Source of the DNA: Escherichia coli | Lineage (GTDB): Bacteria; Pseudomonadota; Gammaproteobacteria; Enterobacterales; Enterobacteriaceae | Assembly: GCF_048403405.1 (NCBI RefSeq) | Contig: NZ_CP183129.1 | Direction: 5' to 3' (one strand) | Length of the DNA stretch: 64,000 nt | In this document: positions 3,624-38,322 of the stretch, piece by piece | Numbering within the stretch: position 1 is the stretch's first letter | Layout of the letters: every line of letters begins with the position of its first letter | Program-made: the position numbers and the translations under genes | The notes under the pieces: model-generated | Seen by the model: the letters and a program-made list of their open reading frames with translations, nothing else | The model's database searches: none | What the model was told of the DNA's origin: nothing

Positions 3624-4486
3624 CGCTGTGTCTCCAGCCAGTTCAGCCACTGGTCCATCCCTTCGCCGCTGGTGGCGGAAATAAGGATGATTTCAATTTC
3701 TGGATTGACTTCGCGGGCGCAGGCGATGCACTTCTCAACGTCAAAGTTGAGATACGGCAGCAGGTCAACTTTGTTGAGCAGCATCAGCGAGGCGGCGGCA
3801 AACATATGGGGATATTTCAGCGGTTTGTCTTCACCTTCGGTAACGGAAAGCACCGCCACTTTGTGTTTTTCACCGAGATCGAAGCTCGCCGGGCATACAA
3901 GGTTGCCAACGTTTTCGATAAACAGAATACCGTTATCGTCCAGTGGCAGGCGCGGCGCGGCGTCGGCAATCATCTGTGCGTCAAGATGGCAGCCTTTACC
4001 GGTGTTCACCTGAATCGCTGGTGTGCCGGTAGCGCGAATGCGTGCGGCATCGTTCACGGTTTGCTGGTCGCCTTCAATAACCGCGCACGGAACGCTGTCT
4101 TTCAGGCGCATTAAGGTTTCCGTCAGCAGGGTGGTTTTACCGGAACCAGGGCTGGAAACCAGGTTGAGCACCAGTTGCTTGCGGGCAGCAAAGCGCGCGC
4201 GGTTGCGTTCAGCCAGACGGTTGTTTTTGTCCAGCACGTCAATTTCAACTTCCAGCATCCGGCGCTGGCTCATGCCCGGCGCGTGAGTGCCCGCTTCGCC
4301 ATGACCGTAATGCAGGTCGCCTTCTTCAGTCTGGCTGGGGGTAAATTCAGGCGTTTTAATGCCGGTGATTTTCATCTTCGGGCGTGCCGCCGGGGCAAAT
4401 GGCGCGCTACGAAACGCGGAATGAGGGTTATGTTCATCACCCTCGATATACAGGTTGCCTTCACCGCAACCGCATGTTGTACACAT
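3614..4486 (-). CDS. hypB: Hydrogenase nickel-incorporation GTPase HypB (290 aa)
   Basis: [22 protein letters not shown]..., His-rich N-terminus and GTPase P-loop (GSGKTT). Confidence 0.95.
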
Positions 4487-4869: not shown

Positions 4870-4887
4870 AAGCAATAATTGTGCCAG
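4870..4887 (-). promoter_or_regulatory. Sigma-54 (-24/-12) promoter for the hyp operon
   Basis: Minus strand reads cTGGCACaattaTTGCt, i.e. GG-N10-GC spacing, about 30-45 nt upstream of the hypA start. Confidence 0.6.
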
Positions 4888-4910: not shown

Positions 4911-4960
4911 AATGTCGATGATGTCGAAATGACACGTCGACACGGCGACGAAATTCATCT
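4911..4960. promoter_or_regulatory. Candidate FhlA upstream activating region between the divergent hyp and hyc promoters
   Basis: Repeated TGTCG/CGACA half-sites (atgtcgatgatgtcgaaatgacacgtcgacacggcgacgaaa) between two sigma-54 promoters; exact sites not verified. Confidence 0.35.
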
Positions 4961-4999: not shown

Positions 5000-5016
5000 T
5001 GGCACAGAAAATGCTT
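5000..5016 (+). promoter_or_regulatory. Sigma-54 (-24/-12) promoter for the hyc operon
   Basis: tTGGCACagaaaaTGCTt with GG-N10-GC spacing, about 35 nt upstream of the hycA ATG. Confidence 0.6.
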
Positions 5017-5051: not shown

Positions 5052-5513
5052 ATGACTATTTGGGAAATAAGCGAGAAAGCCGATTACATCGCACAGCGGC
5101 ATCGTCGCCTACAGGACCAGTGGCACATCTACTGCAATTCGCTGGTTCAGGGGATCACGTTATCGAAAGCGCGCCTGCATCACGCCATGAGCTGCGCGCC
5201 GGACAAAGAACTCTGTTTCGTCCTTTTTGAACATTTTCGTATTTACGTCACCCTGGCGGATGGCTTTAACAGCCACACCATCGAGTATTACGTCGAAACA
5301 AAAGATGGTGAAGACAAACAGCGGATTGCGCAGGCGCAACTGAGCATTGACGGCATGATTGATGGCAAGGTCAACATCCGCGATCGCGAACAGGTTCTGG
5401 AACACTATCTCGAAAAAATCGCTGGCGTTTACGACAGCTTATACACCGCCATTGAAAACAATGTGCCGGTGAATTTAAGCCAACTGGTAAAGGGACAAAG
5501 CCCGGCAGCATGA
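5052..5513 (+). CDS. hycA: Formate hydrogenlyase regulatory protein HycA (153 aa)
   Basis: MTIWEISEKADYIAQRHRRLQDQW...; first gene of the hyc operon. Confidence 0.93.
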   Translation: MTIWEISEKADYIAQRHRRLQDQWHIYCNSLVQGITLSKARLHHAMSCAPDKELCFVLFEHFRIYVTLADGFNSHTIEYYVETKDGEDKQRIAQAQLSIDGMIDGKVNIRDREQVLEHYLEKIAGVYDSLYTAIENNVPVNLSQLVKGQSPAA

Positions 5514-22327: not shown

Positions 22328-23763
22328 TTTGCCTCCGATGCCAGTTCGTCAAAGACGTCTTTGCCAAGGGAGCATTCCGGGCACAGGAAGTTATCCGGGA
22401 CTTCACTCCACGGCGTTCCTGGCGCAACGTCCTGCATTGGCTCGCCTTTTGCCGGATCGTAAATCCACTGGCAGACGCTGCACTGCATCCGTGGGCCGAG
22501 GTCAGCCGTCGTGTTGGCAGAGGTTTCTTCTTTAACCACCGTATTCACCGTGCTCTGCGGCAGCGGCGCGAGCGCCCACTGACGGGCGATTTCGCGACCG
22601 TGTTCACGACATAACTCCAGAGCGTCCTGGTCCGGTCGCCATTTGGCTTTCAGGCTAAGCGACATTTCGAAACCCGCATCCTGCAGGCGCGTGGAAAGAC
22701 GATCCACCGCACCGCCGCTCCAGCCGTGAGAGCCGAAAGCACTGGCGCGTTTGTTACGAAAGCGTAAACCAGTCATCTCCTCCACCAGCCCGGCGATTTT
22801 TGGCATCATCACGTTATTCATCGTCGAAGTGCCGACCAGCACGCCTTTTGAGCGGAAGACATTGGTCAGGATTTCGTTTTTATCGCTTCGGGCGACGTTG
22901 AAAATTTTTACCGCCACGCGTGGGTCGGTTTCCGCAATACCCTGGGCGATAGCGTCAGCCATCATGCGGGTGTTATTCGACATGGTGTCGTAGAAAATGG
23001 TGATTCTGTCTTCCTGATAATCCGCCGCCCATTTCAGGTACAGCTCGACAATTTGCGTCGGGTTATCGCGCCATACCACGCCGTGAGAGGTCGCTATCAT
23101 ATCGACTGGCAAGTTAAAGCCCAGGATCTCGGTAATTTTCGGCGTTACCAGGCGGCTGAACGGCGTCAGGATATTGGCGTAGTAACGCTGGCACTGCTCG
23201 AAAAGCTCAGTCTGATCCACTTCATCGTTGAAAAGATGCTCGTCGCAGTAGTGCTGACCGAAAGCATCGTTACTGAACAGCACCGCGTCGCCTGTCAGGT
23301 AAGTCATCATGCTGTCCGGCCAGTGCAGCATTGGTGTTTCGACAAAAATGAGCTGTTTGCCGTTGCCGATATCCAGCATGTCGCCAGTTTTCACCACATT
23401 AAAATTCCACTCCGGATGATGGTGATGACCATTTATCGAGTCGATAGCGTTGGCAGTACAGTAGATCGGCGTATCGGGAATTTGTGCCATCAGTTCGGTC
23501 AGCGCCCCGGCGTGGTCCTCTTCTGCATGGTTAATCACGATGTAATCGATATCCGCCAGATCGATTTCATTACGCAGGTTCTGCACAAATTCGCGGCTGA
23601 ATTTATGGTCAACGGTGTCGATCAGCACGTTTTTTTCTTCGCGGATGAGGTAGCTGTTGTAGCTGCTGCCGCGCAGCGTTTTATATTCTGTGCCGTGAAA
23701 ATCACGCACTTCCCAGTCACGTTGACCAACCCAATGAATGTTATTTTTCACCACAATAGACAT
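22324..23763 (-). CDS. norV: Anaerobic nitric oxide reductase flavorubredoxin NorV (479 aa, full length)
   Basis: [24 protein letters not shown]..., metallo-beta-lactamase and flavodoxin domains plus a C-terminal rubredoxin CxxC...CxxC. Confidence 0.93.
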
Positions 23764-23807
23764 AGCAACCTCAATTTATTCAGCGTGTTCTAAAAAGATG
23801 TCTTGCT

Positions 23808-23828
23808 AATTGCAGATTGCGTGCCAGT
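23808..23828 (-). promoter_or_regulatory. Sigma-54 (-24/-12) promoter of norVW
   Basis: Minus strand reads cTGGCACgcaatcTGCAat, about 45-60 nt upstream of the norV ATG. Confidence 0.65.
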
Positions 23829-23881
23829 TTTTTATCTGATTGTTTTTACTCTATAAATAAAATTGTGCTCATTAATGAGTA

Positions 23882-23937
23882 GTCAAAATGACTATTAATC
23901 AAATGGTCGATATGACAATATCTATAGTCAAATTGAC
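23882..23937. promoter_or_regulatory. Three NorR enhancer sites (GT-N7-AC) in the norR-norV intergenic region
   Basis: GTCAAAATGAC (23882-23892), GTCGATATGAC (23906-23916) and GTCAAATTGAC (23927-23937) read directly from the sequence. Confidence 0.7.
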
Positions 23938-23949
23938 AGTGAGGCAAAG

Positions 23950-25464
23950 ATGAGTTTTTCCGTTGATGTGCTGGCGAATATCGCCATCGAATTGCAGCGT
24001 GGGATTGGTCATCAGGATCGTTTTCAGCGCCTGATCACCACGCTGCGTCAGGTGCTGGAGTGCGATGCGTCTGCATTGCTGCGTTACGACTCGCGGCAGT
24101 TTATTCCGCTTGCCATCGACGGGCTGGCAAAGGATGTACTCGGTAGACGCTTTGCGCTGGAAGGGCATCCACGGCTGGAAGCGATTGCCCGCGCCGGGGA
24201 CGTGGTGCGCTTTCCCGCAGACAGCGAATTGCCCGATCCCTATGACGGTTTGATTCTCGGGCAGGAGAGTCTGAAGGTTCACGCCTGCGTTGGTCTGCCA
24301 TTGTTTGCCGGGCAAAACCTGATCGGCGCATTGACGCTCGACGGGATGCAGCCCGATCAGTTCGATGTTTTCAGCGACGAAGAGTTACGGCTGATTGCCG
24401 CGCTGGCGGCGGGAGCGTTAAGCAATGCGTTGCTGATTGAGCAACTGGAAAGCCAGAATATGCTGCCGGGCGATGCCGCGCCGTTTGAAGCGGTGAAACA
24501 GACGCAGATGATTGGCTTGTCGCCAGGCATGACGCAATTGAAAAAAGAGATTGAGATTGTGGCGGCGTCCGATCTCAACGTCTTAATCAGCGGTGAGACG
24601 GGAACCGGTAAGGAGCTGGTGGCGAAAGCGATTCATGAAGCCTCGCCACGGGCGGTGAATCCGCTGGTCTATCTCAACTGTGCCGCACTGCCGGAAAGTG
24701 TGGCGGAAAGTGAACTGTTCGGGCATGTGAAAGGGGCGTTTACTGGTGCTATCAGTAACCGCAGCGGGAAGTTTGAAATGGCGGATAACGGCACACTGTT
24801 TCTCGATGAGATCGGCGAGTTGTCGTTGGCATTGCAGGCCAAGTTGCTGCGAGTGTTGCAGTATGGCGATATTCAGCGTGTTGGCGATGACCGCAGTTTG
24901 CGGGTCGATGTGCGCGTGCTGGCGGCGACTAACCGCGACTTACGCGAAGAGGTACTGGCAGGGCGATTCCGCGCTGACTTGTTCCACCGCCTGAGCGTGT
25001 TTCCACTTTCGGTGCCGCCGCTGCGTGAGCGGGGCGATGATGTCATTCTGCTGGCGGGGTATTTCTGCGAGCAGTGTCGTTTGCGGCTGGGGCTCTCCCG
25101 CGTGGTATTAAGTGCCGGGGCGCGAAATTTACTGCAACACTACAGTTTTCCGGGAAACGTGCGCGAACTGGAACATGCTATTCATCGGGCGGTAGTACTG
25201 TCGAGAGCCACTCGCAGCGGCGATGAAGTGATTCTTGAGGCGCAACATTTTGCTTTTCCTGAGGTGACGTTGCCGCCGCCAGAAGCGGCGGCGGTGCCCG
25301 TTGTTAAGCAAAACCTGCGTGAAGCGACAGAAGCGTTCCAGCGTGAAACTATTCGTCAGGCACTGGCACAAAATCATCACAACTGGGCTGCCTGTGCGCG
25401 GATGCTGGAAACCGACGTCGCCAACCTGCATCGGCTGGCGAAACGTCTGGGATTGAAGGATTAA
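23950..25464 (+). CDS. norR: Sigma-54-dependent nitric oxide response regulator NorR (504 aa)
   Basis: N-terminal GAF domain, AAA+ sigma-54 activator core ([14 protein letters not shown]) and C-terminal HTH; divergent from norVW. Confidence 0.93.
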
Positions 25465-37594: not shown

Positions 37595-37687
37595 GGTGAG
37601 GTGGCCGAGAGGCTGAAGGCGCTCCCCTGCTAAGGGAGTATGCGGTCAAAAGCTGCATCCGGGGTTCGAATCCCCGCCTCACCGCCA
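37595..37687 (+). tRNA. serV: tRNA-Ser (anticodon GCU)
   Basis: GGTGAGGTGGCCGAGAGGCTGAAGGCGCTCCCCTGCTAAGGGAG...CCCCGCCTCACCGCCA; long variable arm, CCA encoded. Confidence 0.93.
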
Positions 37688-37690
37688 TTT

Positions 37691-37767
37691 GCATCCGTAG
37701 CTCAGCTGGATAGAGTACTCGGCTACGAACCGAGCGGTCGGAGGTTCGAATCCTCCCGGATGCACCA
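37691..37767 (+). tRNA. argV: tRNA-Arg (anticodon ACG), copy 1
   Basis: GCATCCGTAGCTCAGCTGGATAGAGTACTCGGCTACGAACCGAGCGGTCGGAGGTTCGAATCCTCCCGGATGCACCA; 3 nt after serV. Confidence 0.93.
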
Positions 37768-37901
37768 TATTCTACGTACTTTCAGCGATGAAGGTATGGA
37801 AGAGGTGGCGGTAATAACCGCAGGCACCAGGGAGGATAACGTTGCTTTAGCAACGGCCCGAAGGGCGAGCCGCAAGGCGAGTAATCCTCCCGGATGCACC
37901 A
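37768..37901 (+). repeat. ~134-nt tRNA-associated repeat ending in a copy of the tRNA-Arg 3' end, copy A
   Basis: atattctacgtactttcagcgatgaaggtatggaagagg...aatcctcccggatgcacca; the last ~19 nt equal the T-arm/acceptor 3' end plus CCA of tRNA-Arg; a near-identical copy lies at 38323-38455. Confidence 0.7.
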
Positions 37902-37965
37902 TCTCTTACTTGATACGGCTTTAGTAGCGGTATCAAAAAATCTGCAGTAAAGTAAGTTTCCCGAT

Positions 37966-38042
37966 GCATCCGTAGCTCAGCTGGATAGAGTACTCGGCTA
38001 CGAACCGAGCGGTCGGAGGTTCGAATCCTCCCGGATGCACCA
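37966..38042 (+). tRNA. tRNA-Arg (ACG), copy 2
   Basis: Identical 77-nt tRNA-Arg sequence. Confidence 0.93.
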
Positions 38043-38105
38043 TCTCTTACTTGATATGGCTTTAGTAGCGGTATCAATATCAGCAGTAAAATAAATTTTC
38101 CCGAT

Positions 38106-38182
38106 GCATCCGTAGCTCAGCTGGATAGAGTACTCGGCTACGAACCGAGCGGTCGGAGGTTCGAATCCTCCCGGATGCACCA
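38106..38182 (+). tRNA. tRNA-Arg (ACG), copy 3
   Basis: Identical 77-nt tRNA-Arg sequence; 63-nt spacer from copy 2. Confidence 0.93.
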
Positions 38183-38245
38183 TCTCTTACTTGATATGGC
38201 TTTAGTAGCGATATCAATATCAGCAGTAAAATAAGTTTTCCCGAT

Positions 38246-38322
38246 GCATCCGTAGCTCAGCTGGATAGAGTACTCGGCTACGAACCGAGCGGTCGGAGGT
38301 TCGAATCCTCCCGGATGCACCA
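38246..38322 (+). tRNA. tRNA-Arg (ACG), copy 4
   Basis: Identical 77-nt tRNA-Arg sequence; 63-nt spacer from copy 3. Confidence 0.93.

Follow-up and report, generated by a model that had tools for sequence, protein, structure and literature searches.

An intact NorR/sigma-54 control region upstream of norVW in an Escherichia coli chromosome, nearly identical to that studied in K-12

The closest known system to the region described here is the norR-norVW region of E. coli K-12 (Tucker et al., 2004, 2010; Gardner et al., 2003; Hutchings et al., 2002), from which the binding of NorR, the need for all of its three sites, the role of IHF and the sensing of nitric oxide (NO) are known. In K-12, the G residues protected by NorR span positions -137 to -84 relative to the norV start (PMC2831303), and disruption of any single site abolishes norV-lacZ induction, stimulation of the NorR ATPase and open-complex formation (PMC2831303). 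IHF has been placed between the norV start site and the enhancers (PMC2831303, PMC4601167), and RpoN holoenzyme binds the K-12 norR/norV spacer in genomic SELEX (PMC8743547).

The norR-norVW promoters of Salmonella, Citrobacter and Kluyvera have the same architecture, with sites in the register -111/-90/-66 and a CTGCA -12 element, but differ from that of E. coli in having GTCATATTGAC rather than GTCATATCGAC as site 2, an IHF-like box nearer to consensus and an unrelated spacer sequence. ChIP-chip showed binding of sigma-54 to the Salmonella counterpart of the promoter (TGGCACACTAGCTGCA), and norV was 16-fold up with a promiscuous activator (PMC3844500). NorR-type regulators are also found at hmp/fhp of Vibrio, Pseudomonas and Comamonas and at norAB of Ralstonia eutropha. 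These loci likewise have a divergent NorR homolog and, 50-70 bp upstream of a sigma-54 promoter, tandem GT-N7-AC sites whose cores are AT-rich. However, their target is a flavohaemoglobin or a haem-type NO reductase instead of a flavorubredoxin, the strict GTC-N5-GAC sites are often two in number, other spacing classes occur and their NorR proteins are 45-55% identical.

In the 64 kb of E. coli chromosome analysed here (the window), a spacer of 186 bp (23764-23949, 32% GC) separates norVW on the minus strand from the divergent norR on the plus strand. Of 5426 complete E. coli genomes, 5425 have a match to the spacer, which is flanked by annotated norV, norW and norR genes. It is 100% identical to that of strain C4; the wider window, however, is 98-99% identical to C4 with an indel, and so belongs to another strain. 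The gene norV (22324..23763, minus strand), coding for the flavorubredoxin NO reductase, is an uninterrupted ORF of 479 codons, as the earlier note had claimed in calling it full length; its product is identical to K-12 NorV in 475 of 479 residues and has all of its domains, these being metallo-beta-lactamase-type, flavodoxin and rubredoxin. The end of norV overlaps by 4 bp with norW (21194..22327, minus strand), coding for a 377 aa NADH:flavorubredoxin reductase with full-length Pyr_redox_2 and rubredoxin-binding domains, and the coordinates and length of the gene agree with those of the annotated norW of C4. The NO-sensing sigma-54 activator is encoded by norR (23950..25464, plus strand), whose 504 aa product has a GAF domain, an AAA+ domain and a C-terminal DNA-binding region. 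With three full-length genes and their domains in place, the suggestion of an intact NO-detoxification module is well founded at the level of sequence.

The region has the locus, gene order, 186 bp length, site sequences, site spacing, promoter and 5' leader of K-12 in common. The spacer is identical to that of K-12 MG1655 at 183 of 186 positions, and the three differences (23896, 23869 and 23865) are all outside the NorR sites and the -24/-12 elements. Three 11-bp GTC-N5-GAC sites had been claimed at 23882-23937, and three are found there, all on the minus strand in norV sense. Site 1, nearest to the promoter, lies at 23882..23892 (GTCATTTTGAC, plus strand GTCAAAATGAC), site 2 at 23906..23916 (GTCATATCGAC, plus strand GTCGATATGAC) and site 3, the furthest, at 23927..23937 (GTCAATTTGAC, plus strand GTCAAATTGAC), with centres at about -87, -111 and -132 from the inferred start. 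Each has the form GT-N7-AC as well as GTC-N5-GAC, with AT-rich cores, and their centres are 24 and 21 bp apart. Site 1 has its near edge 56 bp upstream of TGGCAC, and 126 bp separate the far edge of site 3 from the promoter's downstream end, in line with the distance of about 55-125 bp that had been given. Read in norV sense, the order is site 3, site 2, site 1, an AT-rich spacer, TGGCACGCAATCTGCA, a short leader with GAGG and the norV ATG.

All three sites are identical to the footprinted and mutated K-12 sites. In the mutagenic primers of Tucker et al. (2010), GT-N7-AC is replaced by GG-N7-CC at each site (PMC2831303), and reverting these changes gives exactly the sites 1, 2 and 3 found here; site 1 is also identical to that in the 21-bp NorR1 oligonucleotide (PMC2831303). 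The 66-bp NorR123 fragment, which served in binding and ATPase assays (PMC2831303), matches the window at 65 of 66 positions, with the sole mismatch lying between sites 2 and 1. This difference near site 1, at 23896, is a G in the tested DNA and an A here, and there are other E. coli lineages with the A variant. Aligning the region exactly with functional references, the check to which the earlier note had exposed its own reading, reveals no mutation in the NorR sites or in the -24/-12 elements.

The sigma-54 promoter TGGCACGCAATCTGCA (23811..23826, minus strand) lies 48-63 bp upstream of the norV ATG, in the canonical GG-N10-GC register with GG at -25/-24 and GC at -13/-12, and has the K-12 sequence. 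The earlier note had located the element correctly on the minus strand, but its shorthand, TGGCAC-N5-TGCA, is off by one base; the literal pattern has no match in the window, the actual element being TGGCAC-N5-CTGCA or, equivalently, TGGCAC-N6-TGCA. The pattern TGGCAC-N5-YTGCW has three matches in the window, with 0.16 expected. In norV sense, the outermost G residue of site 3 is 23937 and the innermost of site 1 is 23884. Placing the -137 to -84 footprint on these two residues gives a norV start (+1) at 23800 on the minus strand, with GG at -25/-24 and GC at -13/-12, and the published footprint numbering (PMC2831303) and the promoter register here thus agree exactly; it is from this numbering that we infer the start site.

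The 5' leader of norV would then extend over 23764..23799 (minus strand) and has a Shine-Dalgarno GAGG at 23772..23769 as read from the sequence. In 32 Enterobacteriaceae sequences, this leader is far more conserved across genera than the spacer upstream. Folding of the leader RNA gave no structure beyond that of shuffled controls (z = 0.32), and an Rfam scan of the spacer found no RNA family.

Between site 1 and the promoter, the best match to the IHF consensus WATCAANNNNTTR is AAACAATCAGATA (23833..23845, minus strand), with two mismatches, and this candidate is likely to be the IHF box. When the 32 Enterobacteriaceae sequences are aligned, these columns read as a perfect WATCAANNNNTTR in Citrobacter and Kluyvera, an example being AATCAAACAATTA, and the IHF-like block shows a conservation that the adjacent spacer lacks. 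The stretch from site 1 to the IHF-like box (23846..23869) is under little constraint, is not conserved between genera and holds two of the three differences to K-12. Closer matches to the IHF consensus occur at 23897-23912, overlapping site 2 and its spacer, and were not adopted. It is worth mentioning that, with a T at 23843, the alleles of strains MINF_1A, CB7286 and AF3 have an IHF-like box that is a single mismatch away from consensus.

The region is almost certainly the canonical NorR/sigma-54 control region of norVW in E. coli, in intact form, and nothing in the sequence speaks against this. By analogy with K-12, NO responsiveness of norV and the binding of NorR and IHF would be expected to carry over to the present allele; the gene for sigma-54, rpoN, is outside the window. 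Three NorR dimers would bind the GT-N7-AC repeats at -87, -111 and -132, the DNA serving as a scaffold for a hexameric AAA+ ring, while sigma-54 RNA polymerase would wait at the -24 GG / -12 GC promoter (23826..23811) as a closed complex and IHF would bend the AT-rich DNA between the enhancers and the promoter. As long as NO is absent, the AAA+ domain would be kept inactive by the N-terminal GAF domain. Binding of NO to the mononuclear non-haem iron of this domain would release the ATPase, the GAFTGA loop would remodel sigma-54 and the promoter would open, with norVW being transcribed from about 23800 and NO reduced to N2O.

The NorR protein is identical to K-12 NorR in 497 of 504 residues, and the Walker A motif, GAFTGA and the C-terminal region are unchanged. 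Pfam detects the domains GAF, Sigma54_activat (sigma-54 interaction) and AAA_lid_14. The C-terminal helix-turn-helix gave no Pfam match at E <= 0.001, and residues 447-504 are identical to K-12. The protein retains the residues of the NO-sensing iron centre (R75, D96, D99, C113 and D131, and also Y98 and H111) as well as R81 and GAFTGA, the residue lists being those of PMC2941729 and PMC4601167. Among the seven differences to K-12, six are common polymorphisms or positions at which K-12 is the odd one, and only P103L is rare. This change (codon 103, 24256-24258, plus strand) lies within the GAF domain, four residues C-terminal to the iron ligand D99. Six of 5426 complete E. coli genomes have the exact 61-mer that includes the Leu codon (TUM14771, GN02461, 4621, MS 69-1, TUM1226 and OX030728), and carriers of P103L number at most six of the 5426.

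P103L raises the alternative that the cis elements are intact but that iron binding, NO sensitivity or interdomain repression is altered, giving a NorR that is blind to NO or partly constitutive. Along with the rarity of the change, P103 is kept in 9 of 9 other E. coli/E. albertii NorRs whose locus covers this residue and in 25 of 25 NorRs of 80-95% identity (34 Enterobacteriaceae proteins); residue 103 sits between D99 and H111/C113, and point changes in the GAF domain, for example at R81, are known to unlock NorR (PMC2941729). However, all known critical residues are unchanged, position 103 receives no mention in PMC2941729 and is not a reported ligand or mutagenised residue. Among distant NorRs, the position is Leu in 6 of 25 at 55-80% identity and Ile or Leu in 23 of 40 below 55%. 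Since so many distant NorRs have Leu or Ile here, P103L is probably tolerated, and an altered sensor is considered unlikely. Should sensitivity or repression be shifted after all, which is improbable, a small human-associated lineage would possess a naturally retuned NO switch on a canonical promoter, a prospect of only moderate interest.

The other alternative concerns the role of the sites, with the three repeats acting mainly as operators for the repression of norR and not as enhancers of norV. The norR ATG is just 12 bp beyond the end of site 3, with the result that any norR promoter has to overlap the sites or lie upstream of them. K-12 NorR is annotated as a 'dual regulator', and autoregulatory NorR sites were proposed in Vibrio by Rodionov et al. 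However, a scan for a sigma-70 promoter of norR returned a single weak match on the wrong strand and no convincing plus-strand promoter, and in K-12 the enhancer function is direct, with each site being needed for norV-lacZ activation, ATPase activity and the open complex (PMC2831303). Autorepression would be an additional role rather than an alternative one, and the operator explanation is very doubtful as a replacement for norV enhancement. Alongside activation of norVW, bound NorR probably also limits norR expression, as suggested by the position of site 3.

An origin of the motifs by chance in an AT-rich spacer can be set aside as negligible, even though single GTC-N5-GAC matches are not enriched in the 64 kb window (15 against 10.8 expected), because the sites coincide exactly with those defined by experiment in K-12, are conserved across genera and form a cluster that is not random: among 2000 dinucleotide-preserving shuffles of the window, one gave three copies within 45 bp, and among 20000 shuffles of the spacer itself, none gave two or more. 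With such counts a single match is uninformative and it is the cluster that matters. A fourth copy of the motif, GTCACGTTGAC (23716-23726), about 40 nt into norV, was considered as a downstream NorR site and rejected. Its core is not AT-rich and it spans norV codons G13-Q14-R15-D16. As the amino acids GQRD are kept in 57 of 58 orthologues and the DNA motif in only 9 of 58, this copy is a by-product of coding.

The layout was also searched for in one genome per species of 100,044 species, using the pattern TGCA-N6-GTGCCA followed after 45-75 nt by two GTC-N5-GAC sites 8-20 nt apart. The scan returned at least 120 loci, with about 14 expected in uniform random sequence by a rough hand estimate. 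Among the matches listed, 96 of 120 have a divergent NorR homolog starting within 450 bp; norV is immediately downstream in 55 of these 96, while three more loci have norV only. The promoter and two sites are built into the pattern, leaving as independent signals the linkage to NorR, the third site and the AT-rich cores. A third strict site, which the pattern did not demand, is present in 51 of the 55 NorR-norV loci listed, and the N5 cores are 93% A+T in the linked loci against 58% in the 21 unlinked matches among those listed. As a quick independent confirmation, the three-site and sigma-54 layout tracks NorR homologs across gamma- and beta-proteobacteria. Sites starting at -111, -90 and -66 from TGGCAC are common to E. 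coli, Citrobacter, Kluyvera, Pseudocitrobacter, Silvania and E. albertii. For NorR loci with no adjacent norV, both downstream genes checked encode flavohaemoglobins (globin, FAD and NAD domains), which fits the accounts of Rodionov et al. (2005) and of the introduction of Tucker et al. (PMC2831303).

Variation within E. coli was assessed by aligning K-12 and six other alleles, from 98.9% down to 94.6% identity, with the most divergent allele being added for the segment of sites 2 and 3. In the eight full-length alleles, the GTC/GAC half-sites and the -24/-12 elements are invariant, as are the entire sites 1 and 3. The N5 core of site 2 has a C-to-T change in one strain, giving GTCATATTGAC, the form found in Citrobacter and Kluyvera, and the promoter spacer is changed in one aligned allele. 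About 12 of the 16 variable columns in the eight sequences are within 23843-23869, about 27 bp between site 1 and the promoter/IHF-like box. The 46-bp segment with sites 2 and 3 has an exact match in 4109 of 5425 E. coli records, and the 45-bp segment with the promoter in 3367 of 5426 genomes; nearly all of the non-exact segments are one or two bases off, and the variants inspected are changes in spacers or N5 cores.

An exception to this is E. coli AF3, a blood isolate (NZ_OZ547117.1), in which a deletion of 45 bp has produced a fusion of the left half of site 3 with the right half of site 1. Its spacer is 141 bp (4001-4141 of the AF3 segment) and is left with one hybrid NorR site, GTCATTTTGAC, while the annotation gives its norV, norW and norR genes at full length. 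From the requirement for all three sites in K-12, norVW of AF3 is predicted to be uninducible.

The window also holds the FhlA-dependent sigma-54 promoters of the hyc and hyp genes. Like the norVW promoter, these have a GAF-domain activator, upstream sites, a divergent spacer and TGGCAC-type elements; however, the activator is FhlA, the signal is formate, the binding-site sequence is another one and they are outside the NorR regulon. The promoter facing hypA is TGGCACAATTATTGCT (4871-4886, minus strand) and that facing hycA is TGGCACAGAAAATGCT (5000-5015, plus strand), both of which match Salmonella sites (PMC3844500). There is also a third, perfect element, TGGCACATCTACTGCA (5121-5136, plus strand), about 70 bp into the hycA coding sequence on the sense strand. 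A GTC-N5-GAC match, GTCGAAATGAC (4923-4933), lies between the hyp and hyc promoters amid repeated TGTCGA motifs and presumably belongs to the upstream activating sequence of FhlA rather than being a NorR site.

Between hycI and ascB (12917-13881), the window is longer than strain C4 by about 0.8 kb. The additional DNA contains the overlapping small ORFs 13081..13392 and 13389..13808 (plus strand, 103 and 139 aa), a putative HigB/HigA-type toxin-antitoxin pair by the appearance of their sequences. Downstream of csrA there are five tRNA genes (37595-38319) as against three annotated in C4, indicating that their copy number varies between strains. The sRNA MicA is found at 41233-41304 on the minus strand.

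The norR-norVW region is among the best-characterised of sigma-54 systems, and the feature described here is an already known and ordinary one, present as a near-exact replica of the studied K-12 copy, and thus of little value as a discovery. Its value is in annotation, with the genome being scored as possessing a complete and presumably NO-inducible flavorubredoxin module, in contrast to natural O157 isolates with a truncated norV (PMC4601167) and to AF3 with its enhancer cut to one site.
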